NCBI GenBank assembly: GCA_029821875.1
Contig: JALGXW010000011.1
Location: 15,060 to 79,059 of the forward strand
From: Candidatus Hebobacterum abditum
GTDB lineage: Bacteria; Armatimonadota; Hebobacteria; Hebobacterales; Hebobacteraceae
DNA length: 64,000 bases
Reading direction: 5' to 3'
Under the pieces are notes generated by a model that was not told where the DNA came from, ran no database searches, and saw nothing but the letters and a program-made list of their open reading frames with translations. Each line of letters begins with the position of its first letter. The first letter of the stretch is position 1. Positions 16,273 through 32,329 of this stretch are shown here, one piece after another. The position numbers and the translations under genes were made by a program.

Positions 16273-16734
16273 GTCGATCCCTCCCAGTATTGCTCTGGGA
16301 ACCGACATGCTATCTTTGCTGTGCACAGCACAGCAGAGGTGCTGTCAGTCCGTGGGGTCTGCTGCGCCGAGCTCTCATGCCGCAGTACTCTCGCGGCCTT
16401 CAGCGCAAAACAGTCCCTGCTTGTTTGTTCCACAACCGGGGCGAGGACACAGATATCGTACAGCCAGGGCCCCTGAAAGCGACGTCTAGGCCTGTCTGAG
16501 CCGGAATGGCGATTCGCGCGCGGCTGCCGGCAGAGGCCTGAGAGGACATCGGCCGGGGAGTGCGACCATGCAGGTCCGGCCCTGGCGCTGCAGAAGACAC
16601 CTCCACGTCAGCTTCCCTGAGTTCTGCGAGCTGCCCGCGGCGGCACCCCCGTGCTGATGGCGGCCTGCGTGGGCCCTCGCCGGGAGCACGGGCGAGCCGA
16701 CGGGGACACCACGACACAGAGGGGATTCAGCACG

Positions 16735-19700
16735 ATGCTTGGGCGAGGCAGACATTCCTATCCTCATATTCTGGTAGCCTTCCTGCTTGCGGCGGGCGTG
16801 CTATGCGCGCCGGCGCTGGGCGATTTCGAGTTGCCCGGTGCCGCGGGTCGGGCGGTATGGGAGGCGGAGGAGGCGGAGCAGGTCGACGCGTGGGAAATCA
16901 GCGCGCCCGGCGCGAAGGGCGCGCGGTACGTGCAGCCCAGCACCACGCACGGCGAGGCGACGCTGCTGTTCCCGTTTGAGGCAGAGGGGGCAACGACGCT
17001 GCGAGTGCGGCCGGTGTGGTGGCGCAACGGAGAGCAGAAGCTCGCCCGGCGATTCCCCTATCCATTGGCGAGGAAGCCGGGGCCGGACGTGGTGGACTTC
17101 GTCGGGGGGAAGGTGTTCTGCACCGCGCCGGAGGCGGGGAACGTGCTGATCGTCGGTGCGGCCGAGGAGAAGGTAGTGGGGTCAGTGGCGGTGGGCGGAT
17201 ACCTGACCGACCTCGTAGCGGATCGCGAGGCGGGGAAGGTGTACGTGGCCGATGCGCTTGGCGACCGGGTGGTCGTGATCAACGCCGAGCGGCCAAGCGT
17301 GGTGGGGGGATTCAGCGTGTCGGGGAGCCCGTGGGCGCTTGCGCTGGATGGCGGGACTCTGTACGTCGCGTGTCGTGATGGGAAGCGCGTGGTCGCGCTC
17401 AGCGCGGCGTCGGGCGAGGTGAAAGGGGAGGCGCACTTCGAGGCCGCACCGATCGGTGTGGCGCTGGTGGGGGAGGGGGAGAAGCAGCTAGTCGTCCGCT
17501 TCCAAGAGCAGGCGTTTGATGTCTTCACGCTGGAGGAACTGACTCCGGACGAGGAGCGGTTCGCGGCCCTCGACATGACCGGCAAGCCGCCGGCCGGCTG
17601 CGGCGGGCCGACGTGTGACTGCAAATGGGTGGAGGCGGTGGGGCCGCACCAGATCGCGATCGTGAGTGAGAAGCGACGCGAGATCGTGGATGTGAGCGTC
17701 GTAACGCGTCGGCCGGAGGCGGCCGGTCTCGAGGGGCAGCTGCCTGAGAACCCAGGGCCCTGTGCACTCGCGATGATGTACATAGGGGAGCCGCCGCGCA
17801 AGCAAGTGGGGTTCTTCACCGCGCCGAGCAGGGGACTGGTGGGAGTTGTGGACCTCGACAACGGCGTGCTTGAGGACCCAGTTCTCGTGGGAGGGTATCC
17901 GGCGGGGCTGACGCGCGATGAGGATAACGAGAAGTTGTACGTGTGTGATGCCGCGGGCGACCGGGTGGTGGTGATTGATGCCGCAACTCGGCAGGTGGTG
18001 CGCGAGATCGCCGTCGCCGGGCAGCCCTGGTCGGTCGTGCTCGTGAAGGAAGTGGCCTGGCAGCGCCCCGGTGATTGGCAGCCGCGGCGGGGAGAGGGGC
18101 CGATCATCGAGCCAACGCAGGTGAACCGGCTATACGTGGCCTGTCGCGAGACGGAGGAGCTAGTTGCGATCGATCTGGAGACGGAGGAAGTCGTGGCACG
18201 CGCACGACTACGGGGTGAGCCGAGCCGGGCAGAGTTCGTGTCAATGCCATCTCCCGCCTGGTGGCCGGTGATGGCCGATGATCGGATCCCATTCGCGCTC
18301 CACCCGCGGCTGGCCGTGGCAAGGCGGCCGGTCTGGATCGACCCGGAGACGCTGGCGGCAACAGCTGCGCCGTCGGGCACCCTCGATGCCTTGCCGCGGC
18401 GGACCGAGGCGCAAGTCCCCGTGGGCGGCGCGACGAAGACGTTCGCCGCGGACAATGAGCTCGTCTTGGGCGTTGATGGAGAACGCTGGATCGACCTGAG
18501 CGAGGCGGCGGACGCGCAGCGGATGGCGGCCCGGCCGCTGCACGCGAAGGAGATGCCCGGCACGATCACGGTCTCGCTCGACGAAGGACCCGAGTACGAC
18601 TGGGCGCGTAGCATCTGGACAGCACCGGACAGCGAGCTGTTCCTGGTCAATGACTCGGACGAGTTCTGGCGCTACAACGCGGTGAGCGTGCCTGTGGAGC
18701 CGGGCAGGCACGTCCTCCGGGTGAAGGCGCACAGTCCCTACGCGCGGTTCGATGCGCTTGTGGTCAGGCGGTCGCTGGAGCCCGATCTGCTGATGGAGGT
18801 AGTTCCCGAACCGCGCGCAGTGCACGACCAAGTGCCACTCGCGTCATACCAAGGCGTGTTCTACGACGAGGAACCGGTGCGGTTCACGGTCGCGGTGACC
18901 AACAGAAGCGAGAAGCCGGTCCGCCTGCAGTGGGGAGGTTCCCTGCGCAACTACCTGGGTGAGGTGCTGGAGGAGTTCGGGGACGAAGAGGTGCTGACCG
19001 TCGAGGGGGGAGATACCGTCACGATGCCGCTGGCGTTTGAGCCCGAAGAGACGGGCCGGTTCGCGCTGAGGGTGGGTTGTGTCTCCTGGGGGGCACCGCG
19101 GGGGACGCTGGTCAGGGACGTGCGCTTCGTTCGGCTGCCCAAGCTCGAGCATCCGCGTCTGTTCTGGCGCGCAGACGAAGAGAACGACATCCGGGCGCGC
19201 ATCGCGCAGTACCCGAACCTGTTTCGGCGCTACGGCGAGTGGCTGGAGCGGATGGCGCAGCGGGAGGGCAGGTTCCCGGAGCGGTTCCTGCCCCCGGGGA
19301 TCACGCGGGACGAGCTGATGGCGGCTGCGCCGGAGGACATGCCGCAGTGGGAGAAACGGGAGGGCTGCGGCTGGCGGATGTATGAGCTCGGGTGGCGGGT
19401 GTTGGCCGCTCAGTTCGTGCAGCGCTTCCTGAAGCCGGACAGCGCGACGCTGAGCAGCAAGATCGAGGGACTGCGCGGCGCGGAGAGGGCCCAAAGCTAC
19501 ATCCAGTACCACCACCACGGCCCCTTCTTCCCCGGGACCGCGGCCTCACTGGTGGACTTCGCTCCTGGGGAAGCACGGCAGGAGATGAAGCTCGACGACT
19601 TCTTCGAGCAGCACATGGGGGACACGAACACACTGCCGTGGACCCTGGTGATGATCGAGGAGCCGCTGACACCCGTAAAGCGGGCGCTTGTCTACGAGTT

Positions 19701-21348
19701 GGCGACATGGACGACCAATGCAGAGAGGTACTTCGAGGCCCGTCGGGGGGAGCGAGGCGGTCCGTGGTGGCTCGACCCGTATACAGGATGCCGGTGCCCG
19801 AACAGCGGGTACACCATCAGCTTCGTGCTGATGAGCAACTTCCTCGGGGAGCCGCGGGTGTTCGAGAACCCGATCTTCCGCGGCTACCTCACGTTCCAGC
19901 GATACGCCGACCCGATTCGCGACAACCGCACACTCATGCCCGGGCGGAGAGGGCCGAACGGCGAGCCGTGGCGGTGGCTGCTGAGCGCGCTCTGCCGGCA
20001 TCCTGTCGACAAGTCGGTCTACGGATGGGAGGAGTGGGTCGAGACGATGGAGGGGCCTTTGCCCGATGACGAGGAAGCGGCCGTGGATAGTCTCATGGCG
20101 CTGGAGGGGCGCGAGCTCGCCGGGCCGCTGTACGGGAACACGCACTACTTCGTGTCGGGCGTGGCCGTGCCGGTAGCACTCGCCCTTGGCTGGTACGATC
20201 CTGGCGCGCCGGAGGTGCAACCGGACGAGCTGCCGCCAACGGCCGCCTTCGATGTGGAGGGCTGGGTGGCGATGCGGTCCGGCTGGGATTTCCAGGCGAC
20301 CGAGGTGACGTTCGTCTCGGGCGTGAGGGACCACACGACGCGACACAAGCCAAACCACGTCACGATTGTGAAGAGTGGGGAGTTTCTACTCGGGACGCCG
20401 AGCCTGCTTTGGGATGACGGCAACAACGTGGGCGTCTGGGGGAACAGCGTCGTGGTCGGTGACGACTGGACCGAGCAGTGGCGGATGAACCTCCAACACC
20501 CGCGGGATGGCGAGCACATGGTTATCAACCGGTTCTCCCCGTGGAACTGGACCTACATCGCGCGGGACCGGCACATGGCGGGGTACAGACCTTCGGAGCA
20601 GGCCTGGGGCGGGGGACTGAACCTGCACGGACACACCGAGACGATGTTCATGAACGAGGGTCGATTGCTGGCCTACCAGACGTGGCCCGACCTAGACTAC
20701 GTCGCCGGCGACGCGAGCAACGCTTGGCGGTGCGAGGAGGTGGCACAGCTCGACCGGCAACTCGTGTTCCTCAAGCCCGACGTAGTAGTCGTCTACGACC
20801 GGGTGAAGCTCGGGCCGGAGGCCGATGAATCCCGGTGGCTGGCTGCAACGGGGCTGCATCTGCAGATCGAGGGGAGCACGTTCCGCGTGTTGAGCCGGTC
20901 ACGGTGCTTGGTGGGGGCGGTCGTGCTGCCAGACGAAGCGGTGCTCGCGACCCCAGAGCTCCCGGAGGACGCGTGGTATTGGCGCGGACAGCAAGCGCTC
21001 GAAGTGAGGCCGCCCGGACCGCGCGACGAAGTGGAATACCTCGTGGTGATGCGAGTCGGCGAGCCATGGCCGGCCTACCCGCGGCCGGAGCTGATCGAGC
21101 GTGAGGGCCGGGTGGGCGTGAGGCTGACGCTGGAGGATCGGGAGATCGCGGTGGCCTTCAACCGCGGCGGTGCGGTCGGCGGTAGAGCCACCATCGAAGC
21201 GGACGGCACGGTGAGCCGCTACGATCTTCGCGAGGAGATCGTAGACAGCTACGCGGGGTGGCAAGATGACCCGCGGCACGAGAGGTGGGAGCAGGAGCGG
21301 TTTGGGTTCATGGTGCCCGAGGTAGCGGCCAGCTCGGGGCGACACTGA
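16735..21348 (+). CDS. secreted YVTN-type beta-propeller repeat protein fused to a heparinase II/III-like (polysaccharide lyase-like) region
   Basis: Signal peptide MLGRGRHSYPHILVAFLLAAGVLCAPALG. Repeated motifs GKVYVADALGDRVVVI / EKLYVCDAAGDRVVVIDA. The later region, with HPRLFWRADEENDIRARIAQYPNLF and HKPNHVTIVKSGEFLLGTPS, resembles DUF4962 plus heparinase II/III. Confidence 0.8.
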   Translation: MLGRGRHSYPHILVAFLLAAGVLCAPALGDFELPGAAGRAVWEAEEAEQVDAWEISAPGAKGARYVQPSTTHGEATLLFPFEAEGATTLRVRPVWWRNGEQKLARRFPYPLARKPGPDVVDFVGGKVFCTAPEAGNVLIVGAAEEKVVGSVAVGGYLTDLVADREAGKVYVADALGDRVVVINAERPSVVGGFSVSGSPWALALDGGTLYVACRDGKRVVALSAASGEVKGEAHFEAAPIGVALVGEGEKQLVVRFQEQAFDVFTLEELTPDEERFAALDMTGKPPAGCGGPTCDCKWVEAVGPHQIAIVSEKRREIVDVSVVTRRPEAAGLEGQLPENPGPCALAMMYIGEPPRKQVGFFTAPSRGLVGVVDLDNGVLEDPVLVGGYPAGLTRDEDNEKLYVCDAAGDRVVVIDAATRQVVREIAVAGQPWSVVLVKEVAWQRPGDWQPRRGEGPIIEPTQVNRLYVACRETEELVAIDLETEEVVARARLRGEPSRAEFVSMPSPAWWPVMADDRIPFALHPRLAVARRPVWIDPETLAATAAPSGTLDALPRRTEAQVPVGGATKTFAADNELVLGVDGERWIDLSEAADAQRMAARPLHAKEMPGTITVSLDEGPEYDWARSIWTAPDSELFLVNDSDEFWRYNAVSVPVEPGRHVLRVKAHSPYARFDALVVRRSLEPDLLMEVVPEPRAVHDQVPLASYQGVFYDEEPVRFTVAVTNRSEKPVRLQWGGSLRNYLGEVLEEFGDEEVLTVEGGDTVTMPLAFEPEETGRFALRVGCVSWGAPRGTLVRDVRFVRLPKLEHPRLFWRADEENDIRARIAQYPNLFRRYGEWLERMAQREGRFPERFLPPGITRDELMAAAPEDMPQWEKREGCGWRMYELGWRVLAAQFVQRFLKPDSATLSSKIEGLRGAERAQSYIQYHHHGPFFPGTAASLVDFAPGEARQEMKLDDFFEQHMGDTNTLPWTLVMIEEPLTPVKRALVYELATWTTNAERYFEARRGERGGPWWLDPYTGCRCPNSGYTISFVLMSNFLGEPRVFENPIFRGYLTFQRYADPIRDNRTLMPGRRGPNGEPWRWLLSALCRHPVDKSVYGWEEWVETMEGPLPDDEEAAVDSLMALEGRELAGPLYGNTHYFVSGVAVPVALALGWYDPGAPEVQPDELPPTAAFDVEGWVAMRSGWDFQATEVTFVSGVRDHTTRHKPNHVTIVKSGEFLLGTPSLLWDDGNNVGVWGNSVVVGDDWTEQWRMNLQHPRDGEHMVINRFSPWNWTYIARDRHMAGYRPSEQAWGGGLNLHGHTETMFMNEGRLLAYQTWPDLDYVAGDASNAWRCEEVAQLDRQLVFLKPDVVVVYDRVKLGPEADESRWLAATGLHLQIEGSTFRVLSRSRCLVGAVVLPDEAVLATPELPEDAWYWRGQQALEVRPPGPRDEVEYLVVMRVGEPWPAYPRPELIEREGRVGVRLTLEDREIAVAFNRGGAVGGRATIEADGTVSRYDLREEIVDSYAGWQDDPRHERWEQERFGFMVPEVAASSGRH

Positions 21349-21696
21349 AGAACGATGTCGTTGGGCGCGGAAGCCGGCGCCGGAACGCGTGTTGGTGGCG
21401 AGCGACGCGTGTGTAACGGGTATATCCGCCGAACGCGTGCCCATCCGCCAGTGCCTCGTCGGGCAGCGGGCATCGCGACAGAAGCCGAGGGGATGGTAAC
21501 GATGTAACGGCCGGCCCGATAGGTGACGCAACTTGCAGGACTGTCACATGAGCCAATGAGCCACTGGGCCGGTCTTCTTCTTTGTCAGGGGGGTGATCGC
21601 CAAGCTTGTCCCACATCCCCCGCGCAGGAATCCTAGGCCGTCTCGCCGGCTCCCCCACGCTTGGGGGACGCGGCGGGGTCCTACCGGAGATCGGGC

Positions 21697-23433
21697 ATGA
21701 CTGTGTCCGCGGAGACGAACAGCAGCGATAGCGAGAAGCGGCCTGCAAAGGCGCTCCTTGTCCTTCGAGTCCTGCTCGGGATGGCGCTTGCTCCGGGAAT
21801 CCTCATTGCCGTGGTTGCGGCCGCGTCCGGCCTCGTCGAGAGCGCCGACGCGCTCGATCTCTGGATGTCGGGCGTGGCCGACATGCTCGCCCTGCGGGCC
21901 GAGACGCTGGCTCTGCTTGTCGCGCTCGTAGTCGCCATCCCGGGTCTGATGCTCGCGGGTCTGCTAGCGCGCCCGCGCTGGTGGTTGCCGGCCGTGCTGC
22001 CCTTCCTCCTTGGCTGCCTCCTTTGGCACGTGATGATGCGCGACATCAGCGCAGGATACGCCTACCCTTACTACATACAGCTGCTGTCCGTCTTGCACGT
22101 GGCGGGGACGGGTGCCGCCTTGTTCTTCGGCTGGCTGGGCTCGCGCCTCGCGCGCGGTGCCGGGGCCAGACAGACGTTGATTGCCCTGGTGACCCTATGG
22201 ACTGGCGGAGTCTGTCTCCTCGCGCTGGGCCGCGCGGAGATGGGGGATGACTCGGCCCTCGCGTTCTGGTTGTTCGCCGCGGGCTTTGAGTTGGGCCTGG
22301 GCGTGGTCGCGCTCGTCGGTTACTGGACGAGAGAAAACAGAGACCTTCTCCAGGTGAGCTGGGTGCTCTGGTGTCTCGTGGCCCTGGCCGCGGTTGCCGT
22401 TGGGCGTGGACTGGCGGCGGCCGGAGCGCTGGCCTGGTACTCTCCGCTGCCAGCGCTTGTGGTCGGGGGCGCGGTGTTCTCTGCGCTTGGCCTCGTGGCG
22501 GCCGCGCTGAGGCGCTCGAAGGTGGCCAAACGCCTCACGCGGGCCAGGGCCGTCCTCGGTCTCGCGTGTGTTGCGTCAGCAGCGGTAACCATGGCGCTGG
22601 CCAGGCTCTTCCCTCACCCCGCGCTTGCCAGCGCCGGTGGCTCGGGCTACGTCCTTCTGTCTGTTTCCCCAGGACTGGCTTCCTCCGTCGAGTTTCGCGC
22701 CGACCGCGTGCGGATAGCAGGCAGCCCAGACGGCCTCGACGACGCGCCATGGGTGGCGAGCGATTCCGTCGCCCCACCATACACGACCTTCTTGCCAGTC
22801 GGGGTGCCAGTGCCGCGAGAACAGCTGCCACCTGGGTGTGCCGGAGTGCAGGCGCGCTTCCAACTGATAGACTTCGATTATCTCTCGTTCGGCGCGAGAC
22901 GATGGGGCAAGCGCGCGGCGCTCCACGACATGATGGGTATAGTTGATGTCGGCTATCTCTTCAGGGATGCAGGGGGAGGCGACTGGACATACTGGGTGGG
23001 CGCGGGCTGGTTTGACATATCGGCGTCGGCGGATGGATCAAAGTTGGTGGAGATTCCTGCCTCTCCCCCCGACCGACCTGAGCTGACACTCTCGGTAGAC
23101 CTCGAGCGCGAGGAGAGGCACCACGTCGGGTTCGGCCTACGGCTCACGAGCGCAGACCGCATCATCGAAGACGTCGAGCGGGACGGCGAGAGCGTGTTGG
23201 CCAGTCTCGTCGTCTCTGATGCATCCGGCAATAGAGTGGTCTCCACGCGGGGCACGCTTGACGATCTGGGCTTCACCTGAGGGGGCCCCTGCTACTCCGT
23301 GCGAGTAGCCGACCCGGGCAGCTACGTGTGCAAGGCTGCGATCGACGTTGGCCCGTTGGGCGGCATGCTTGAGGCCGAGTCGGCCTTCACGGTCCCCCAG
23401 CGGCCGCAGACACGTCGCCGGCTGAGCTACTGA
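21697..23433 (+). CDS. polytopic membrane protein with C-terminal extracytoplasmic domain; putative selenoprotein (in-frame TGA at 23278..23280)
   Basis: The ORF to 23280 is clear, with about 8 hydrophobic helices followed by a soluble domain. Reading TGA as Sec adds 50 codons (GGPCYSVRVADPGSYVCKAAIDV...) that are homologous to the post-TGA tail of the 24543 gene. A hairpin lies 10 nt after the TGA. Confidence 0.6.
23291..23309 (+). promoter_or_regulatory. putative bacterial SECIS hairpin
   Basis: GCUACUC-CGUGC-GAGUAGC is a perfect 7-bp stem with a 5-nt loop containing GU. It starts 10 nt after the TGA at 23278..23280. Confidence 0.55.
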
Positions 23434-23601: not shown

Positions 23602-24480
23602 ATGAGATGGCTGCCTGTGCTGTTGCTGGTCGCGCTACTGCTTCCTGCTCCGGCCGAGGGTTCCTCGGAAGAGCCAGTGGCGGTCACTGCCCTTCTCTCG
23701 GGCGAGGTTGCACCTCTGGTCATCACGCTCGGCAGCCTCGACAGCGGGTGGTGCCGGTTCACCACTGGTGGGGGCGGAGGCACGGACATCTACTCCGCGA
23801 TGTATGGCATACAGCCCTCCCCCTACTACACAAAGGGAGAGACCGTCTGCGCTGGCGACCAAGTGTATCTGCTCGCCTACAAGACCGAGACCCGTCAGGC
23901 AGGCTACTTGGCACTCATGACTGGCCAGCGAGACATGGAGGATGTCCCCGCGGTCACGGCGGAGACGGAGCTCGGCCTGTGTCTTCTCAATCTCGCCACC
24001 ATCGGCAGCTTCCTTGACATCAGCGCCTTCGACCTGGAGTCGGAGATCCAACGCTACGCGGAGGCCGCCGAGCGGCTGGAGACCACTCTCGCGGGGATGC
24101 GGGGCGGCTATGATTACGAAGAGGGGGCCGCCGAGGACAACCTCGACGAGATCGCTCTGGCACTCGAGATGTACACCATCGACCACGGGGACGTTCTGCC
24201 TCCTATGTCTACGCAGGAGGAGTGGCAGGAGGCGCTAAGCTGGTACGTGGCTGACTTATCGGTCTTTGTCGATTCGGCGACGGCCGAGCCATATCCCATC
24301 AATGCATCTCTGTCAGGTGTGGAGCTGGCCTCGATGGAGGAGCCTGGGGAGATCGTCGCCGTCTACGAAGCTCAGCTTCGTGACGACGAGACACGAAAGG
24401 TCGTCTTTGCCGACGGCTCCACTGGATACATCGCCGAGGACGCCTGGGCCCAGATGAAGGCTGCATCGGGCATCCAATAA
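23602..24480 (+). CDS. secreted hypothetical protein
   Basis: Signal peptide MRWLPVLLLVALLLPAPAEG and SD GAAAGGAG upstream. The C-terminal half (NLDEIALALEMYTIDHGDVLPP...VFADGSTGYI) loosely resembles the conserved C-terminal module of DUF1559/pseudopilin-like proteins. Confidence 0.75.
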   Translation: MRWLPVLLLVALLLPAPAEGSSEEPVAVTALLSGEVAPLVITLGSLDSGWCRFTTGGGGGTDIYSAMYGIQPSPYYTKGETVCAGDQVYLLAYKTETRQAGYLALMTGQRDMEDVPAVTAETELGLCLLNLATIGSFLDISAFDLESEIQRYAEAAERLETTLAGMRGGYDYEEGAAEDNLDEIALALEMYTIDHGDVLPPMSTQEEWQEALSWYVADLSVFVDSATAEPYPINASLSGVELASMEEPGEIVAVYEAQLRDDETRKVVFADGSTGYIAEDAWAQMKAASGIQ

Positions 24481-24542: not shown

Positions 24543-25373
24543 ATGCGACACGCGCTGAAGCTCAGTCTGGCATGTATGCTGCTGGCAGGGGCGCTGTTAG
24601 CCCCTGCCCACGCCGCGCCGAAGGCGGTCTACGTCAAGCTGACGTCAGGCACTGACGGCGGGCCGGTGGCGTACGCGGAGCTTCGAGGCAACGAGATCCG
24701 CGTGGCTCCCACCGTCGAGCGGCTCGTCGACGCAGAGGCCATAAAGGCAAGTGATGCCGGCCTCGAGCGCCATGGCAACATGGCCTATCAGCACGGCACG
24801 TTCCCTTCCGTCGACCTCCCGGCGCAGGACCCCGAGGTCGCGAAGGTGTCCGCCACATTCTCGGTGTGGCGCGCGGTGAGTCGGAGCCGGAGCCGACGTT
24901 GGGAAACAGAGAACTTCAGGGTCAGCGCCGAGATATCGTTCGCTAAGCGCGGCCCCGGCGGCGCGGTCTGGACCTATGTGTTCAGCTCCCACGCCGAGGC
25001 GAGCGCGGCGACGCAGCCGTCGAAGGCCGCCAGCCTCGCCATCCCGCCCCTTGAGAAACTCCAACTGAGTATGGAGACCCAGGTGAAGGGGAGAGAGGCG
25101 GGCATTGGCCTGCGGCTGAAGTCGGGCGAAGTCGTTCTCACCCACGTGCGCCGCAACGGCGATGCCGCCGTGTGCACGCTGGAGATCTATGACCGGCAGG
25201 GACAGAAGGTGAGCACCCACAAGGGCGATCTCCAGAAGTTCGGGTTTACCTGATCGGGACCATGCTACTCCGTGAGAGTGGCCAATCGAGGATCGTATGT
25301 AGTCAAGGCGACGGCGGATGTGAGCGCGGATGGCCAGCCGCTGACCGCGGAGGCGAAGCTCTTCGTTCGCTGA
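24543..25373 (+). CDS. secreted protein, paralog of the C-terminal domain of the 21697 gene; putative selenoprotein (in-frame TGA at 25251..25253)
   Basis: Signal peptide MRHALKLSLACMLLAGALLAPAHA. Reading through the TGA adds SGPCYSVRVANRGSYVVKATADVSADGQPLTAEAKLFVR. A hairpin lies 10 nt after the TGA. A rho-independent terminator follows the extended stop, not the TGA. Confidence 0.6.
25264..25282 (+). promoter_or_regulatory. putative bacterial SECIS hairpin
   Basis: GCUACUC-CGUGA-GAGUGGC is a 7-bp stem with one U-G wobble replacing the U-A pair seen in the paralog, and a 5-nt loop with GU. It starts 10 nt after the TGA. Confidence 0.55.
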
Positions 25374-25397
25374 ACTGCTGGCGCGGATACTGCAATG

Positions 25398-25432
25398 GCG
25401 CCACGGCCCGGATTGGGTCGTGGCGCTTTCTT
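25398..25432 (+). terminator. rho-independent terminator candidate
   Basis: 8-bp stem GCGCCACG ... CGTGGCGC followed by TTTCTTCGTG, located 25 nt after the extended stop at 25373. Confidence 0.55.
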
Positions 25433-25564
25433 CGTGTCCTCGCGGGGACGGCGAGCAAGCGGGCCAGGCGAGCAGCCGGCGTGGCCGGACGTGAGGAGCA
25501 CAGCTCGGGAGGCTGCTGAGAGACTGCCGGCGCTGACGCCGGCCGGGATATGTGAGAGGACGGC

Positions 25565-26794
25565 ATGGAGCGCGAGCGGACAACAGCCTTCAGCGAAGCC
25601 TGCAACGCCGGAGAGCCGGCCGTCGCGCCGGACGGTAAGGGAGACCCGTTCGCCTGGTTCGCTTCGATGCTGCCTAACTGCCTGGAGTACGCGAAGGCGG
25701 CCAAAGCGGAGGGGCGGCCGATCGTCGGCATAACGTGCGAATACACGCCGAGAGAACTGATAGTCGCCGCCGGGGCGGTCCCGGTGTGCCTGTGCGGCGG
25801 CTCCGCGGACACCATTCCTACGGCCGAGCGAGACCTTCCCGCCAACCTGTGTCCGCTGGTCAAGTCCACCTATGGCTACCACGCAGAGAAGGGCAACCCA
25901 CTCCTTGAGATGGCCGATCTGCTTGTGGTCGAGACGACCTGCGACGGCAAGAAGAAGATGTACGAGCTGATGGCCGAGAGCCGGCCCGTGCATCTGCTCG
26001 AGCTGCCGCAGAAGGCGGAAGACGATGCTGCCTTCGAGCACTGGGCGGGCGAGCTTCGCGCCCTTGTCGCCGTGCTTGCGGAGAAGCTCGGCGGCTCGCC
26101 GTCCCAGGATGGCATCGAGAGCGCAATTCGAGCCATGAATCGCGAGCGATCGCTGCGGCGCGACCTGGCCGCCCTGATGCAGTCGGACGCCCCCCCGCTA
26201 ACCGGACGGCAACTGCTCGACTGCCGAAGCATCATCGCCGGCGTTCCTGTGGCTCTGGAACAGTATGAGCGGACGCTGGACATGCTTCGGGCCGGGGAAG
26301 CGCGTGGCGAGATGAATTCGGGGGTGCGCGTGCTGATGACAGGCGTGCCGATCGTCCGGGGAGCGGAGCGCGTTGTGGACATAGTCGAAGGAGCCGGCGG
26401 CCTCGTCGTCTGCATGGAGAACTGCACAGGTGTCAAGCCGATTCTCGACGACGTCGCAGAGGGTACGCCCGATCCGATGCACGCGATAGCCGAGAAGTAC
26501 TTCGCGCTGCCCTGCTCGGTGATGACGCCGAATGAGCGACGGCAGACGACGCTCCGTCAGCTGGCGGAGGAGTACCGACCACAGTGCGTGATCGAGCTCA
26601 TCTGGCAGGCCTGCCTGACCTATGACGTTGAGTCGTTCTTCATCCGGCGTCTGGCGGAGGAAGAACTCGGGATACCGTATCTTCGAATCGAGACGGACTA
26701 CTCGCCATCCGACTCCGCGCGCATTGAGACACGGGTGCAGGCTCTCTTCGAGACGGTGCGCGGGCGGTCTGTTGCCGAGACGAGAAGAGGATGA
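25565..26794 (+). CDS. 2-hydroxyacyl-CoA dehydratase family / double-cubane-cluster (YjiM-like) protein
   Basis: 409 aa with conserved Cys positions (ITCEYTPRELI, VCLCGG, NLCPLVKS, ETTCDGKKKMYE). It is a single subunit immediately followed by an activase gene. Confidence 0.75.
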   Translation: MERERTTAFSEACNAGEPAVAPDGKGDPFAWFASMLPNCLEYAKAAKAEGRPIVGITCEYTPRELIVAAGAVPVCLCGGSADTIPTAERDLPANLCPLVKSTYGYHAEKGNPLLEMADLLVVETTCDGKKKMYELMAESRPVHLLELPQKAEDDAAFEHWAGELRALVAVLAEKLGGSPSQDGIESAIRAMNRERSLRRDLAALMQSDAPPLTGRQLLDCRSIIAGVPVALEQYERTLDMLRAGEARGEMNSGVRVLMTGVPIVRGAERVVDIVEGAGGLVVCMENCTGVKPILDDVAEGTPDPMHAIAEKYFALPCSVMTPNERRQTTLRQLAEEYRPQCVIELIWQACLTYDVESFFIRRLAEEELGIPYLRIETDYSPSDSARIETRVQALFETVRGRSVAETRRG

Positions 26795-26797
26795 GCC

Positions 26798-27571
26798 TTG
26801 ATCTGTGCTGGCATTGACGCGGGCTCCAGGACGACCAAGATCGCCCTCATGGGAGACGGCGACGAGGTGCTGCTCGCGTCGGCGGTGGGCGAGCCGGGTG
26901 CGTGCACCGCGACTCAGGCGGAGGAGCTGTTCGAGAAGACCGTCGCGCAGCACCAAGTGGACCGGGACCGCATCGGGCGCGTCGTCGCAACGGGATACGG
27001 CCGCGCGGCACTACAGATGGCCGATACGACCGTCACCGAGATAACATGCCATGCCCGCGGGGTGCAGTTTCTCGAGCCAAGAGCGGCCACCGTGGTGGAG
27101 ATCGGCGGACAGGATAGCAAGATCATCCTGCTGGACGGGAACGGCGGGGTCCGCGATTTCGTCATGAACGACCGTTGTGCGGCTGGCACAGGTCGATTCC
27201 TGGAGATGGTCGCGGAGCGCCTCGACGTCGGGGCCGTGGGGCTTGGCGAGTTGGCGGCCGGGAGTCAGAAGCCAGCGACCATCAATCCCACTTGCGCCGT
27301 CTTTGCGGAGACTGAGATCATCGGACTGCTATCGGCCGGCGCGAAGCCCCAGGACGTCGCGGCCGGCGTGCAGGAAACCGTCGCCACCCGCATGGCGACT
27401 CTGGCCGTAGGCAGGGCCGAGCGGCCCGTGGTCTTCGCCGGTGGCGTGGCGCTGATACCGGGGATGGCCAGCGCGCTGAGTCGCGCCCTTGCGTGTCAAG
27501 TAGAGGTGGCGAGCGCGCCGCAGCTCACCGGAGCCATCGGAGCGGCGCTCATAGCCTGCCGGGAGGCATGA
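26798..27571 (+). CDS. CoA-substrate-specific enzyme activase (BcrAD/BadFG/HgdC/YjiL-type ATPase)
   Basis: ICAGIDAGSRTTKIAL, VVEIGGQDSKII, NDRCAAGTGRFLE (cluster-ligating Cys), CAVFAETE. TTG start. Confidence 0.85.
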   Translation: MICAGIDAGSRTTKIALMGDGDEVLLASAVGEPGACTATQAEELFEKTVAQHQVDRDRIGRVVATGYGRAALQMADTTVTEITCHARGVQFLEPRAATVVEIGGQDSKIILLDGNGGVRDFVMNDRCAAGTGRFLEMVAERLDVGAVGLGELAAGSQKPATINPTCAVFAETEIIGLLSAGAKPQDVAAGVQETVATRMATLAVGRAERPVVFAGGVALIPGMASALSRALACQVEVASAPQLTGAIGAALIACREA

Positions 27572-27688
27572 TGCGTTGAGCAGGCCGCGCGAGCAGCATG
27601 TTGAGAACGGGACAGATGGGTGCTATGATGATCTGTCTGCTGGCAACATCACGAGTCGCCTTGAGGGACTGTCAGAAAGGACCCTTCC

Positions 27689-27967
27689 ATGACAGCAGGC
27701 AGGGCAGGCTTCCTGGTCTCGCTGGTGCCACTGGCGGTCTATCTCTCCGCGATATGTTCCCAGCCTGGCTGAGGGACGTCTGTCGGAAGCCTGTTAGGCT
27801 TCCTCGCGGTGGGATCGATCCCGGTGGCCCTTGGGCTTGGCATCAAGGGCCGGCGGCAAGGCGTTGACCGTGCGTACGCGACAGCAGGATTGCTGATCAG
27901 CAGCGTGACAGCGGCGTTTGTCTTGTTGCTGCTTGGTGTCGGGCTCGCCATGTCGGTGTATAGGTGA
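27689..27967 (+). CDS. small two/three-helix membrane protein; putative selenoprotein (in-frame TGA at 27770..27772)
   Basis: Hand translation: MTAGRAGFLVSLVPLAVYLSAICSQPG-TGA-GTSVGSLLGFLAVGSIPVALGLGIKGRRQGVDRAYATAGLLISSVTAAFVLLLLGVGLAMSVYR. Both halves are hydrophobic. A hairpin lies 12 nt after the TGA. The stop is 31 nt upstream of selD. The post-TGA half has no convincing start codon of its own. Confidence 0.45.
27785..27803 (+). promoter_or_regulatory. putative bacterial SECIS hairpin
   Basis: GGAAGCC-UGUUA-GGCUUCC is a perfect 7-bp stem with a 5-nt loop containing GU, 12 nt after the TGA at 27770..27772. Confidence 0.5.
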
Positions 27968-27997
27968 GTTCGAGTCGATCGTGCAACTAAGGAGTGG

Positions 27998-29629
27998 ATG
28001 GTGGCAGGTACGTCAAAGCGGGCGCGAGTGATGGGTCGGTCTGCCCGCGTTGGGCACTGCATCTGCGATCCGAGGAAGCCGTGCCCCTGCGACGTCTTCC
28101 TGGAGCAAGACGTGTGTCTCTGTGCGGGCGAACGCCTGCCGGACGCCGACAGCCCCACGGAGTCGATCGCCTTGACCAAGCTAGTGAAGAACGCTGGCTG
28201 CGCCTCGAAGATCCCTCCCGCCTACCTGGCATCGATTCTCTCCCGCCTACCGAGGATAGAGGACCCGCGGCTGCTCGTCGGGAGCCACACAGCGGACGAC
28301 GCCGGGGTCTTCGAGATCGCCCCTGATCTGCTCCTGGTGCAGACGGTCGACGTCTTCGCTCCCTGTGTCGATGATCCGTACGAGTTCGGACAGATCGCGG
28401 CCTGCAACTCGCTGAGCGATTGCTACGCAATGGGTGGGACCCCGCTCACTGCGATGTCTGTCATCGGCTACCCCGCGCATACCTTGAGCGATGAGTGGAT
28501 GTGCCAGATCCTACGGGGGGGCATGGACAAGCTGGCGGAGGCCGATGTGGTCCTCGTCGGCGGCCACAGCGCCAACGACGACGATATCAGGTTCGGCTTC
28601 GCAGTGACTGGCATCGCGAGCCAGGCCGACCTGATCACCAACGCAGGCGCGCAGCCGGGTGACCTGCTCATCCTGACGAAGCCCCTGGGAACGGGGATAG
28701 TCGCCTTCGCCTCCCAGGTCGGACGCGCCTCGGAGGAGGACAAGCGAGCGTCCGCGGCCTCCATGATGATGCTCAACCGGGCCGCGTCGCAGGTCATGCG
28801 CGAGGTTGGCGCTCATGCCTGCACGGACGTCACGGGATTCGGCCTCCTCGGCCACCTTCGCCACATGGTGTGCGCAAGCCGCGTCACAGCAGAGGTCTGG
28901 TGGGAGAGACTGCCGCTGTTCGAGGGGATCGGGGGATATGCTCTGGACGGCCTGGTCTCCGGGGCCGCCGAACGCAACCGGGAGTTCGCCGGGGAACTGA
29001 CCGAGGTGGGGGAGGCGACCCCGGAATGGGTGTTGGATGTCCTCTATGACCCGCAGACATCGGGGGGACTGCTGATTTCCGTTGCGGCCACATCGGCCGA
29101 GCCCACTGTCTCGCGGCTCAAATCGCTGGGGTGCACCGAGTCCGCCGTAGTCGGCCAAGTGACCGAGGAATCGGAGGGGAGGATACTGGTGAAGAAGGCA
29201 GATGAGAGTGCCGCGAGTGACGCCGTGTCGGGCTCACCCGCGCGTGACAGGGCGGCGCAAGACGACATCGCGTCGGCAGCCTCGCGGAGTGTGCCTGTGG
29301 CAGAGGCGAACACCGAGGAATGCTGCGCGCCTGGCAGCGCTCCCGCCGACGCGAGCGAGACGCAGAGGCGGTTCAGCCAGTTCATGGGCGCCGCCTTCGG
29401 GCCCGGCGCCCTGGACGTGGTTCAGAAAGAGCTCGTCACGATCGCGCTGTCGGTTGCGACGCGCTGTGAGCCATGCCTCAAGGTTCACCTGGACAAGGCC
29501 GAGAAGATGGGAATCTCGGCTGATGAGGTGAAGGAGGCCGCCTGGATGGGCGTGGCCTTTGGCGGCGCCAGCGCGATGATGTTCTGGACGGAAGCATCGA
29601 AGCTGCTGCTTGATGACGAAGGCGCGTAG
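27998..29629 (+). CDS. selD: selenide, water dikinase (selenophosphate synthetase) with N-terminal Cys-rich extension and C-terminal AhpD/carboxymuconolactone-decarboxylase-like domain
   Basis: SelD core: LTKLVKNAGCASKIPP (Cys form of the catalytic loop), DDAGVFE, QTVDVF, GGHSANDDDIRFG, TDVTGFGLLGHL. N-terminal HCICDPRKPCPCDVFLEQDVCLCAGE. The C-terminal roughly 90 aa contain the RCEPC (CxxC) motif typical of AhpD-like domains. Confidence 0.9.
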   Translation: MVAGTSKRARVMGRSARVGHCICDPRKPCPCDVFLEQDVCLCAGERLPDADSPTESIALTKLVKNAGCASKIPPAYLASILSRLPRIEDPRLLVGSHTADDAGVFEIAPDLLLVQTVDVFAPCVDDPYEFGQIAACNSLSDCYAMGGTPLTAMSVIGYPAHTLSDEWMCQILRGGMDKLAEADVVLVGGHSANDDDIRFGFAVTGIASQADLITNAGAQPGDLLILTKPLGTGIVAFASQVGRASEEDKRASAASMMMLNRAASQVMREVGAHACTDVTGFGLLGHLRHMVCASRVTAEVWWERLPLFEGIGGYALDGLVSGAAERNREFAGELTEVGEATPEWVLDVLYDPQTSGGLLISVAATSAEPTVSRLKSLGCTESAVVGQVTEESEGRILVKKADESAASDAVSGSPARDRAAQDDIASAASRSVPVAEANTEECCAPGSAPADASETQRRFSQFMGAAFGPGALDVVQKELVTIALSVATRCEPCLKVHLDKAEKMGISADEVKEAAWMGVAFGGASAMMFWTEASKLLLDDEGA

Positions 29630-29702
29630 GGACAACTGTGCCCTCTTCTATGGAATGCGCGGAGGACCTCGGGTCGAAGTCAGGCAGCGTTGACGTCGAG
29701 GC

Positions 29703-29801
29703 GGGAGCGGATTGGTTCTGGTGGACCTCCCCGGGCTTCAAACCCGGCGGTGGGGCCCTGATAAGGTCCTGGGTGGGTTCGATTCCCACACGCTCCCGCC
29801 A
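29703..29801 (+). tRNA. selC: tRNA-Sec (anticodon UCA)
   Basis: Anticodon arm CCGGG-CUUCAAA-CCCGG with UCA at positions 34-36. Long variable arm GGGCC-CUGAUAA-GGUCC. T arm GUGGG-UUCGAUU-CCCAC. Acceptor GGGAGCG/CGCUCCC, then G73 and an encoded CCA. It lies between selD and selA. Confidence 0.85.
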
Positions 29802-29850
29802 ACTCGGTCTGACGACTTGATTCAAGCGGAGAACCGTTCCTAGAGAGCAC

Positions 29851-30756
29851 ATGAGCACGAGCGACCGCCGACAGCGACTGCTGGAGAAACGGCCACGAGT
29901 GCAGCTCTACTCCCTCGTTGTGCTCAACAGCTACATCCTCGCACCTGTCGGCAAGTACATCTGCCTGCCTGTGCTGAACTGCTACGCCTGCCCGATTGGG
30001 ACCGTCGCTTGTCCGGTCGGAAGCATCACCGCCTTCGTTATGGTGCCCTACTTCCCATTCTACGTCATCGGCATGCTGGGCATCGCCGGCCTTGCCGTCG
30101 GCAGAGCCTTCTGCGGATGGGCCTGCCCGTTCGGGTACGTGCAGGATCTGCTCCATCGCATCCCTGGCCGCAAGTTCGGGCTGCCTCGTGCACTCGACGC
30201 GACGAAGTACGTCTTGCTAGTCGTCCTTGTGGTGGGCCTTCCTCTTCTGCTTGGCAACCCGTACGACTTCACGGGAACTGAGCGAGTCGTCTTCGAGGCA
30301 GGCGGCACGTGGGACTACTGTGCACTGGTGTGCCCTGTCGGGACGCTCCAGGCGGGTGTGCCCGGCCTCATAGCCAATGCCGACTTCCGCGAGAAGGCAT
30401 CGTGGCGCACGGCGAGCAAGCTCGCCATCCTCGCTATCGTGTTGGCCCTCGCCGTGCTGTCGCACCGGAGCTTCTGCCGAGTTCTGTGTCCGCTTGGCGC
30501 ACTCATGGCGATCGCCTCGATTGTCAAGCTGCCCCGGCTTCGCACCGATCAGGGCGCGTGCACGCGCTGCCTGCGCTGCCGCCGCACATGCCCGACCAGC
30601 AGTCGCTTAGTACCAGAGAATGCCGGCGAGGGCGAGGCCACCTCCGAGTGCGTTCTCTGTCTCGAATGTGTGCGGGTCTGCCCTGAGGCCGGCGCGCTCT
30701 CTGCTTCCCTGGGAGGGAAGTCCCTGGTGACATCCGGAGGAAAGACGAGTGAGTAG
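29851..30756 (+). CDS. NapH/NosR-type membrane 4Fe-4S polyferredoxin
   Basis: CxxxCP motifs (NCYACPIG, VACPVGS, GWACPFGYVQDLL, LVCPVGT, VLCPLGA) within TM segments, plus two ferredoxin motifs CTRCLRCRRTCP and CVLCLECVRVCP. Confidence 0.8.
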   Translation: MSTSDRRQRLLEKRPRVQLYSLVVLNSYILAPVGKYICLPVLNCYACPIGTVACPVGSITAFVMVPYFPFYVIGMLGIAGLAVGRAFCGWACPFGYVQDLLHRIPGRKFGLPRALDATKYVLLVVLVVGLPLLLGNPYDFTGTERVVFEAGGTWDYCALVCPVGTLQAGVPGLIANADFREKASWRTASKLAILAIVLALAVLSHRSFCRVLCPLGALMAIASIVKLPRLRTDQGACTRCLRCRRTCPTSSRLVPENAGEGEATSECVLCLECVRVCPEAGALSASLGGKSLVTSGGKTSE

Positions 30757-30877
30757 GAAGACCTGGATACTGGTTGCTGTCGTGCTGTCGGTACTGGCCG
30801 CATGCCTCGCGTATGGCATCTACCTCGGCGACCCGGGCTATGTGTTCGCCAATGCCCTGGCCGTCTGCTATACGTGA
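30749..30877 (+). CDS. possible 42-aa single-helix membrane peptide
   Basis: GTG at 30749 overlaps the polyferredoxin stop. The translation is VSRKTWILVAVVLSVLAACLAYGIYLGDPGYVFANALAVCYT. It is below the track cutoff and has no homology support. Confidence 0.3.
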   Translation: MSRKTWILVAVVLSVLAACLAYGIYLGDPGYVFANALAVCYT

Positions 30878-30898
30878 CCGCTAGGAGAATGACCGCGC

Positions 30899-32323
30899 GT
30901 GTCGCGGCCCAAACCCAACAACGGTGATGACGATCGGTCCGCCCTCCGGCGGCTCCCGCGCGTGGACGACCTCCTCGCGCACCACCTGCTGGCCGACCTG
31001 GTTCGGCGCGCGCCCCGCTCTGTCGCGCTCAGTGCTGCCCGGGACGCGGTGGCCGAGGCGCGGGAGCAGATCCGCCGAGGCGAGGACATGTCCGACCACG
31101 ATTTGGTCGCGGCGCGAGCGGCCGAACTCCTGGAGGGACGCCTGCGGCCGAGCCTCCGTAGGTGCATCAACGCAACCGGTGTCATCCTTCACACTGGGCT
31201 CGGCCGAGCGCCCTTCTCGGCGGCCGCGCAGAGCGCGGTGGCGGAGGTGACGAAGGGATACAGCAACGTGCAGGCCGACATCGCAACGGGCCAGCGCGCC
31301 AGCCGGGAGGCACACGTGGAGTGGCTCCTCGAGCAGATCTGCGGTGCTCCCGCGGCGGTGGTCGTGAACAACAACGCCGCGGCGACGGTGCTCGTACTGA
31401 ACACACTGGCGGCCGACCGAGAGGTCATCGTCTCCCGCGGTGAGCTCATCGAGATCGGCGGAGCGTTCCGTCTTCCCGATATCATCCGTCTGGCGCGCTG
31501 CCGATTGGTCGAGGTCGGCTGCACGAACAGAACACACCTGCGCGACTATGAGCAAGCGATTACAGGGGACACCGCGCTGCTGCTCTCGATCCATCAAAGC
31601 AACTACGTGATCCAGGGCTTTGCCTCTCAGGTGGACATCAGCGAGATCGCCCGATTGGCGAAGTCCCGCAATCTGGTGTGCGCGCACGACCTCGGCAGTG
31701 GGGCGCTGGTCGACCTGCGCCGCTTCGGCTTGCCCTATGAACCTGTGGTGCGGGTGAGCCTGGAGGGGGGCGCCGACATTGCCTTCTTCAGCGGGGACAA
31801 GCTGCTCGGCGGGCCGCAGTGCGGGGTAATCGTGGGCGAGGCCGATCTTCTGCAGTCGATGCGTCAGAACCCCTTCTATCGCACCTTCAGGGTCGACAAG
31901 CTCACGCTCGCCGCGCTCGAGAGTACCCTGCGTCTCTTCTTGGATGTTGACGCACTGCCCGACACGCATCGCGTCATCGCCATGCTGACCGTCCCCGTGG
32001 AAGAGCTGAGGGCCCGAGCCCAAACGCTGGCGGAGACCGCGCGCGAGCGTTGTGGCTCCTGGCTTCGCACAGACGTGCGCGACGGGGAGTCGCAAGTCGG
32101 CGGCGGCTCTCTTGCAGGCCACGCGCTTCCCACTGCGCTCGTGGCGCTCGTGTCCGATCGCGTGTCGCCGCTCGAACTTGCGCGTCGGCTCCGCGCAGGC
32201 GATCCACCGGTGTTCGCGCGAGTCGGGGACGACGCCGTGCTCCTCGATGCCCGCACTATGGAGGCGAGCGACGACGCTCCTCTCGTACATGCCCTGGAGC
32301 AGGTGGGTCGCTCCCTTGGGTGA
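30899..32323 (+). CDS. selA: L-seryl-tRNA(Sec) selenium transferase
   Basis: GELIEIGGAFRLPDI and FSGDKLLGGPQCGVIVG (PLP lysine motif). The 474-aa length fits SelA. GTG start with AGGAGA upstream. Confidence 0.9.
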   Translation: MSRPKPNNGDDDRSALRRLPRVDDLLAHHLLADLVRRAPRSVALSAARDAVAEAREQIRRGEDMSDHDLVAARAAELLEGRLRPSLRRCINATGVILHTGLGRAPFSAAAQSAVAEVTKGYSNVQADIATGQRASREAHVEWLLEQICGAPAAVVVNNNAAATVLVLNTLAADREVIVSRGELIEIGGAFRLPDIIRLARCRLVEVGCTNRTHLRDYEQAITGDTALLLSIHQSNYVIQGFASQVDISEIARLAKSRNLVCAHDLGSGALVDLRRFGLPYEPVVRVSLEGGADIAFFSGDKLLGGPQCGVIVGEADLLQSMRQNPFYRTFRVDKLTLAALESTLRLFLDVDALPDTHRVIAMLTVPVEELRARAQTLAETARERCGSWLRTDVRDGESQVGGGSLAGHALPTALVALVSDRVSPLELARRLRAGDPPVFARVGDDAVLLDARTMEASDDAPLVHALEQVGRSLG

Positions 32324-32329
32324 GGCCTC

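Follow-up and report, generated by a model that had tools for sequence, protein, structure and literature searches.

Why should a bacterial reading frame remain conserved beyond the codon that appears to end it? We addressed this question for a gene of Candidatus Hebobacterum abditum, here called gene B, in a 64,000-nucleotide stretch of contig JALGXW010000011.1 (the window). The open reading frame (ORF) of gene B (24543..25253) closes at the TGA at 25251-25253, and the same frame then stays open for 39 more codons until a second TGA at 25371-25373; reading through the first TGA gives ...HKGDLQKFGFT-TGA(25251-25253)-SGPCYSVRVANRGSYVVKATADVSADGQPLTAEAKLFVR-TGA(25371-25373). A paralogue in the window, gene A (31% identity to gene B, E 6e-31, BLASTP), reads ...LGFT-TGA(23278-23280)-GGPCYSVRVADPGSYVCKAAIDV... 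and ends at 23431-23433. We interpret the first TGA of gene B as a selenocysteine (Sec) codon, decoded in the standard manner that depends on SelB and a selenocysteine insertion sequence (SECIS), with a probability of about 0.93; actual Sec insertion is inferred. The initial annotation of this locus had proposed a translated tail and had given no mechanism by which the stop is passed; Sec insertion suggests itself because tRNA-Sec, selA, selB and selD lie in the same window.

Conservation across the TGA of gene B

Comparison of the two paralogues revealed 6 identical, 11 synonymous and 6 non-synonymous codon pairs among the first 23 codons after the TGA, and our recount returned exactly the 11 synonymous pairs that the initial annotation had listed for gene B against the tail of gene A (23281..). 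Residue identity between genes A and B was 17/23 over these codons vs. 8/23 in the 23 codons before the TGA, and the other two frames of the tail contained stops or showed no conservation. By the Nei-Gojobori method, the ratio of non-synonymous to synonymous substitution rates (dN/dS, omega) was 0.20-0.35 for the gene B tail (three orthologue pairs; window vs. L004, L001) and 0.31-0.49 for the gene A tail, with values of 0.31-0.53 for the body of the proteins (0.37-0.48 in three gene B orthologue pairs). Variability at the three codon positions 3' of the hairpin described below was 0.87, 0.79 and 1.51 bits. These results support the purifying selection that had been postulated for a translated sequence past the stop: omega across the tails and orthologues is not near 1, the tail shows coding periodicity, and both frame and tail are kept. 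Homologues lacking the tail were looked for and none was found, as every TGA-carrying homologue seen as DNA keeps it.

The initial protein searches yielded four homologues, all ending at the TGA; the DNA of these, together with scans of metagenomes and genomes, brought the collection to 34 distinct sites. In all 34 the in-frame TGA occupies one and the same alignment column and is accompanied by the hairpin, and the tail is 37-40 or 50 codons long; the best-conserved block of the whole protein, GFT-U-GGPCYSVRVA, spans the TGA. A HMMER profile search of 1.84 billion cluster representatives identified 261 family members at E <= 0.001 (208 at E <= 1e-10), each representing a cluster at 50% identity. 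Among 162 family proteins fetched, 152 end exactly at FGF[T/G/S], where the TGA lies, and the three representatives inspected as DNA (on contigs too short for neighbourhood analysis) all have TGA, hairpin and tail; by extrapolation, the TGA would be present in about 150 clusters at 50% identity. The scan of a genome collection, in which one of the two search patterns demanded a Cys codon at the Sec position, returned only one metagenome-assembled genome (MAG), from Candidatus Hebobacteria (Armatimonadota), which is syntenic with the window and whose gene B orthologue is about 60% identical.

Relatives that lack Sec encode body and tail in one ORF, so that their tail is translated by ordinary decoding. 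Structures were modelled for one naturally Sec-less relative, P0010, both for the whole protein and for its C-terminal domain. AlphaFold returned a pLDDT of 88.7 and a pTM of 0.80 for P0010, and a pLDDT of 90 for the C-terminal domain alone. The model comprises two beta-sandwich domains, with the Sec-equivalent residue in a loop and the tail forming the last three strands (235-238, 243-252 and 258-267) of the second, immunoglobulin-like (Ig-like) domain; on this model, a stop at the TGA would leave the Ig-like domain incomplete. Searches of Pfam-A and NCBIfam release 20 found no curated family for genes A and B at E <= 0.01. Scanning 28 members at E <= 1 gave only weak Ig-like matches (MG2 in 5/28, FlgD_ig in 3/28), consistent with an Ig-like fold, and a sequence-profile search of the PDB found no family.

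The hairpin and the decoding of the TGA

Single-sequence folding placed in both paralogues a hairpin of the form GCUACUC-CGUG[A/C]-GAGU[G/A]GC, whose 7-bp stem begins 10 nt past the UGA. The distance from UGA to apical loop is 17 nt, and 20 nt in relatives with a one-codon insertion. In the published description of bacterial SECIS elements (bSECIS), one of the first two nucleotides of a small apical loop is a G, the next base often being G or U, and this loop lies 16-37 nt from the UGA (PMC13188914); the hairpins of genes A and B, with loop CGUGN at 17 nt, agree with this description. The 19-nt hairpin motif occurs twice in the window vs. 0.01 times expected. The arrangement of TGA, hairpin and tail is not due to chance, and it recurs at every examined DNA locus that carries the TGA. 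When the window was scanned for further Sec candidates (in-frame TGA, loop-G hairpin and coding-like flanks), only genes A and B were convincing, and a motif scan found no copy of the conserved hairpin 3' of the true stop of gene B (25371..25373).

RNAalifold, applied to 30 sequences, returned the same hairpin as the consensus structure, with 99% of cells paired. The changes seen in the stem keep pairing: 12 convert U-A to U.G, and one is a compensatory C-G to U-A change in the second copy of locus L026, which alters the protein from Val to Ile. At the DNA level the hairpin is practically invariant, although family proteins share only 26-40% identity with gene B. Across the 34 distinct sites, third-position entropy was 0-0.19 bit at the hairpin codons TGC TAC TCC GTG CGA and 1.1-1.7 bit where Gly or Ala is invariant outside the stem; the hairpin Ser is TCC in 34/34 sites, and the hairpin Val is GTG in 34/34. 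Three codons separate the TGA from the hairpin; in these, amino acids are conserved and synonymous sites are free. The tail had initially been described as diverged at synonymous sites: this holds outside tail codons 4-9, and does not hold inside them, where synonymous sites are frozen family-wide because these codons form the SECIS hairpin. Part of the tail's conservation is therefore at the RNA level, not the protein level. In two Sec-containing members (L026 2124 and L029 3592), Ser (TCC) replaces the conserved Cys (TGC), a change that also abolishes the first base pair of the hairpin; judging from these two sequences, neither the partner Cys nor the first hairpin pair is indispensable.

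Relatives with another codon at the Sec position provide natural controls. The Cys homologue P0151 (L034) reads GFK-C(TGC)-DGPC and gives the family a Sec/Cys pair; its hairpin has decayed to GCUACAC-CCUGC-GAGUUGC, with two stem mismatches and the loop G gone. In the Trp form (TGG, L035) and in the Sec-less paralogue of L022 the hairpin is gone, and in copy 2 of L030, a recent TGA-to-TCA derivative, the stem is still present and the loop U is now C. The hairpin is kept up only in the presence of the TGA, as predicted for a SECIS; constraint on 'CYSVRVA' at the protein level alone does not predict such a pattern.

Besides P0151, seven relatives are uninterrupted (P0010, P0011, P0014, P0039, P0069, P0076 and P0096); they have Ser, Arg, Trp, Glu or Leu instead of Sec, and the downstream Cys is lost in all seven. 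Sec-less paralogues, located at L030 1362..2168, L022 1672..2586, and L035 3..887 and 1015..1818, mostly adjoin an intact Sec copy; from their sequences, they look like redox-dead duplicates retained for another role. P0030 (479 aa) consists of two family units fused in tandem: a Sec-less one (...DFALS-S-MGIPRYSAPV...), followed by one that ends ...DFGFT, presumably at a Sec-TGA.

If the TGA of gene B is a Sec codon, the mRNA 3' of the UGA would fold into the 7-bp hairpin at 25264-25282, with the loop CGUGA serving as a bacterial SECIS. SelB, encoded 7 kb downstream, would bind this hairpin and bring Sec-tRNA(Sec), made by SelA on the tRNA encoded at 29703-29801 with selenophosphate from SelD. 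The ribosome would then insert Sec and proceed for 39 codons to the stop at 25371-25373, beyond which lies the terminator-like hairpin. The predicted product is an exported protein of 276 residues with two beta-sandwich domains, carrying Sec in the glycine-rich loop G-F-T-U-S-G-P-C of the second (Ig-like) domain, and the gene A product would be a membrane-anchored paralogue of the same build.

A tail that is clearly translated would also result from read-through without Sec, either because TGA encodes an amino acid, as in genetic codes 4 and 25 (Trp or Gly), or because a near-cognate or suppressor tRNA places Trp or Cys at a leaky stop; the TGG (Trp) in one relative and TGC (Cys) in another indicate that other residues are possible at the site. 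However, TGA is the normal stop of selA, of the double-cubane reductase and activase genes next to gene B, and of several other window ORFs; no conserved window gene has an internal TGA, and the sel genes, themselves free of internal TGA, are intact under table 11. TGA is therefore not reassigned genome-wide. Furthermore, the four components required of a Sec-decoding genome (selD, tRNA-Sec, selA and selB) are all within the window, at 27998..34252, or 2.7-9 kb from the TGA of gene B, and the SECIS-like hairpin always accompanies the TGA and decays once the TGA is replaced, whereas leaky read-through needs no hairpin. We regard read-through without Sec as very unlikely.

Slightly less probable still is a genuine stop, with the downstream conservation due to a separate small ORF (e.g., GTG 25272..25373) or an RNA element (attenuator, terminator or small RNA). 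Gene callers do terminate at the TGA, a 33-codon GTG-initiated ORF lies in the same frame, and the hairpin codons are conserved at the RNA level. Nevertheless, conservation runs unbroken across the TGA and peaks in GFT-U-GGPCYSVRVA, and Sec-less relatives encode body and tail as a single ORF. In addition, the codons before the hairpin are conserved as amino acids, coding periodicity continues beyond it, and the tail completes a beta-sandwich that would otherwise be three strands short in the model. We therefore rejected a separate ORF starting at GTG 25272. A pseudogene, or an assembly or sequencing error in a normally uninterrupted gene, is the least probable account: single-nucleotide changes do interconvert TGA with TCA, TGG and TGC in the family, but the same TGA stands in two window paralogues, independent metagenomes supply 34 distinct DNA sites that have it, about 150 clusters would carry it by extension, and both flanks are under purifying selection.

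Several observations weigh against decoding of the TGA as Sec, or against what we build on it. Folding energies of single sequences were not better than those of shuffled ones (z +0.5 to +1.6), and the case for the hairpin therefore rests on comparative conservation. True covariation amounts to one event, and 16/500 shuffles reached the observed score; covariation is thin because the stem hardly varies. Rfam searches at gathering-threshold and permissive settings found no matching model at the hairpin, tRNA-Sec being the sole real match in the window. Few substitutions (5-18 per class) entered the dN/dS estimates, and Foldseek matched only generic Ig-like folds (TM 0.45-0.55), among them Ig domains of beta-glucuronidases, CopC, SoxYZ and superoxide reductase. 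P0151 is the sole Cys homologue among about 160 proteins, and lies on a 1.1-kb contig. Of the loci with sufficient flanking sequence, only about half showed linkage to selD; the biochemical role is only inferred, and proximity of a selenoprotein gene to sel genes may be mere co-localisation.

Relation to known systems and possible role

The arrangement at gene B resembles that of bacterial selenoprotein genes with a SECIS inside the ORF and SelB-dependent decoding, of which E. coli fdhF is the archetype: both have an in-frame UGA, a hairpin within the coding sequence (CDS) with G-U in a small loop, selA, selB, selD and tRNA-Sec, and a Sec/Cys pair. Gene B belongs to an unrelated protein family, and the SECIS of this family is unusually uniform for proteins 26-40% identical. 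Thioredoxin-fold redox selenoproteins with UxxC/CxxU motifs (Prx-like, DsbA-like and AhpD-like), which make up the majority of bacterial selenoprotein families, likewise have Sec close to a conserved Cys, and some of them are also exported. The present family departs from them in its Ig-like beta-sandwich, in its spacing of U-x-x-x-C or U-x-x-x-x-C, and in the rarity of Cys-for-Sec homologues (1 in about 160 proteins); according to reviews, nearly all selenoproteins have abundant Cys homologues, and most have thioredoxin folds. The scarcity of Cys counterparts is probably why searches based on Sec/Cys pairs missed the family, and its departure from both the thioredoxin fold and abundant Cys homologues may explain the missing report by such methods.

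SoxY, a periplasmic sulfur carrier, has its reactive chalcogen residue in a glycine-rich peptide, namely the reactive Cys of a C-terminal GGCGG swinging arm, and has SoxZ as its partner. The Sec domain resembles SoxY/SoxZ and CopC in being a predicted periplasmic Ig-like sandwich (Foldseek matches to 2oxh, 2oxg, 2ox5 and 5icu, TM 0.43-0.52); unlike the Cys in the C-terminal GGCGG tail of SoxY, the Sec lies in an internal loop and is followed by three strands (39 residues). The family showed no sequence similarity to SoxY, the TM score was about 0.45, and sox genes were not seen nearby in window scans. Homology to SoxY or CopC was rejected, as the likeness does not go beyond a generic fold and numerous unrelated Ig-like domains match just as well; on the basis of the models, it may guide ideas on function but does not place the family with SoxY or CopC.

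Another family that is not of the thioredoxin type is DUF1573 (PF07610), whose UGC-motif selenoproteins are listed in PMC13188914; unlike these, the 28 members that we scanned at E <= 1 all failed to match PF07610, and the motif differs. NCBIfam includes many selenoprotein-specific models, yet none matched the family. Checks of the family table in a 2026 review, of the BSepDB paper's text (111 families) and of the deep-Sep paper did not reveal it, nor did literature searches on selenoproteins in Armatimonadota or groundwater MAGs; this literature check was limited, and a description elsewhere is possible. The recoding mechanism is known, and the family looks new.

With respect to location, the gene B product begins with a signal peptide, other relatives all begin with a signal peptide or membrane anchor, and nine membrane helices are predicted for gene A, whose C-terminal domain the positive-inside rule puts outside. 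Thus the gene B product is predicted to be exported and to act outside the cytoplasm. In a loop rich in Gly and Pro, Sec precedes a nearly invariant Cys by four or five residues. This arrangement suggests that U and the downstream Cys form an extracytoplasmic centre for selenenylsulfide redox chemistry or ligand binding. Since Sec-less paralogues lose the Cys too, the sequences further suggest that Sec and Cys act together.

Family genes are found repeatedly beside sel genes (also in L001, L007, L017, L021, L022, L028, L030 and L032). In seven distinct loci (L007, L017, L021, L022, L028, L030 and L032) they lie directly 3' of orthologues of selD, or of selD fused to an AhpD domain. The gene order is selD, family gene, napH-like gene, selA in L028, and selD, family gene, family gene, selB in L030; tandem family genes are frequent (L021, L026, L027, L030 and L031/32). 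Tentatively, the family might work together with the sel genes beside it to handle selenium, another chalcogen or a metal in the cell envelope. Because its genes recur inside sel clusters, an envelope function in selenium or chalcogen handling is the most attractive specific hypothesis.

By analogy, and with lower probability than the general role, the family could be the extracytoplasmic front end of a dedicated pathway for acquiring or trafficking selenium. On its Sec-(x)3-Cys loop, an Ig-like protein that is exported or anchored in the membrane would pick up selenium or a selenium-sulfur species, as SoxY does sulfur. SelD would then receive the selenium through co-clustered proteins: the NapH-like ferredoxin, the double-cubane reductase and its activase, and the AhpD domain. 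Such a pathway, doubtful as it is, would explain why the genes occur inside sel operons in many lineages and why Cys in place of Sec is nearly absent. To our knowledge, bacterial selenium handling includes a step that is still poorly understood, and the repeated place beside selD, selA and selB makes the family a candidate for it.

Genes A and B and about 150 related clusters are now called truncated 'hypothetical proteins' that end at the TGA; reading a Sec codon restores about 40 residues and a likely active site. If this reading is true, the 261 clusters at 50% identity would be a sizeable addition to the bacterial selenoproteome, unusual in its Ig-like fold, its extracytoplasmic site, its near lack of Cys counterparts and a SECIS fixed at the nucleotide level. 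The invariant hairpin gives a simple DNA signature for members, TGA-N(10,13)-GCTACTCCGTGNGAGTRGC.

Features of the locus and neighbouring genes

The coordinates of the features discussed are collected in Table 1.

Table 1 Features of the gene A/gene B locus and the adjoining sel cluster in the window.
Feature	Position	Strand	Basis or description
Gene A, predicted paralogous selenoprotein; 9-helix membrane domain and outward-facing C-terminal Sec domain	21697..23433	+	BLASTP vs. gene B; orthologue in L001/L006; positive-inside rule
Putative Sec-TGA of gene A	23278..23280	+	Motif G-F-T-U-G-G-P-C
Putative SECIS hairpin of gene A	23291..23309	+	GCUACUC-CGUGC-GAGUAGC
292-aa secreted protein between genes A and B	23602..24480	+	Homologues adjoin family genes in L015, L016, L029
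Gene B, predicted complete selenoprotein CDS of 276 codons including the Sec codon	24543..25373	+	ORF and read-through translation; orthologues in L001-L005 syntenic, TGA and tail kept
Predicted signal peptide of gene B	24543..24614	+	MRHALKLSLACMLLAGALLAPAHA, then AP; hydrophobic segment at residues 4-22, then A-H-A; putative cleavage site
In-frame TGA of gene B, putative Sec U237	25251..25253	+	Motif G-F-T-U-S-G-P-C; TGA at this column in 34/34 distinct DNA sites and 3 further representatives
C-terminal tail, 39 codons, SGPCYSV...KLFVR	25254..25370	+	AlphaFold models of Sec-less relative; omega 0.2-0.35; tail length conserved
Putative SECIS hairpin of gene B	25264..25282	+	GCUACUC-CGUGA-GAGUGGC; 7-bp stem, 5-nt loop, G-U at loop positions 2-3, 10-nt spacer from UGA
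Predicted true stop (TGA) of gene B	25371..25373	+	Stop position aligned in relatives (TGA, TAG or TAA)
Putative intrinsic-terminator-like hairpin, 14 pairs (25397..25427), and T-rich tail	25397..25437	+	Consensus scan
Double-cubane-cluster reductase, anaerobic	25565..26794		NF040772, E 8e-117
ATP-dependent activase of double-cubane reductase, acyl-CoA-dehydratase type	26798..27571		
selD (selenophosphate synthetase) fused to AhpD/CMD domain	27998..29629	+	TIGR00476, E 8e-106; PF02627
tRNA-Sec, anticodon UCA	29703..29801	+	ARAGORN; Rfam RF01852, 67.3 bits vs. gathering score 47
NapH-like membrane ferredoxin (Fer4_5)	29851..30756		NF007013, E 3e-19 (below cut-off); PF12801
selA (selenocysteine synthase)	30899..32323	+	TIGR00474, E 4e-159
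selB (Sec-specific elongation factor), C-terminal winged-helix SECIS-binding domains	32330..34252	+	TIGR00475, E 3e-113; PF09107, PF09106

With respect to gene boundaries, an internal ATG at 24576 is a possible start of gene B in the window's own gene call, and the strong terminator-like hairpin begins 24 nt past the second TGA. The ORF of gene A opens at TTG 21661 (21661..23280), and the ATG at 21697 agrees with the start of the orthologue. Immediately 5' of gene A lies an ORF of 1565 aa with a GTG start (16651..21348); the Hebobacteria MAG has MoxR, DUF58, SpoIIM and RDD genes in the matching upstream region, so that synteny begins at gene A.

The AhpD/carboxymuconolactone-decarboxylase domain at the C-terminus of SelD carries a CxxC motif (...ATRCEPCLKVH...), and the SelD-AhpD fusion is conserved at 55-65% identity in the family-carrying loci L007, L017, L021, L022 and L032. 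The reductase and activase lie between the selenoprotein genes and selD, as they do in the Hebobacteria MAG (L001 9092..10996), and the activase precedes selD also in L007 (1..570); a link of this pair to selenium reduction is conceivable. The NapH-like ferredoxin gene between tRNA-Sec and selA is likewise found by family genes in L001 (13285..14190), L028 (1946..2962) and L038 (1225..1866), in the last of which it comes after the family gene, and it seems to be part of a conserved sel cluster.

Searches of Pfam and NCBIfam returned no match for the 292-aa secreted protein, whose homologues have 31-34% identity (L015 782..1852, L016 2073..2957 and L029 3724..4578); it is a possible functional partner of the selenoproteins. 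Between activase and selD, the MAG has two tiny called ORFs of 30 and 47 aa (L001 11105..11401), and the counterpart of this region in the window is a 430-nt gap at about 27571..27998.

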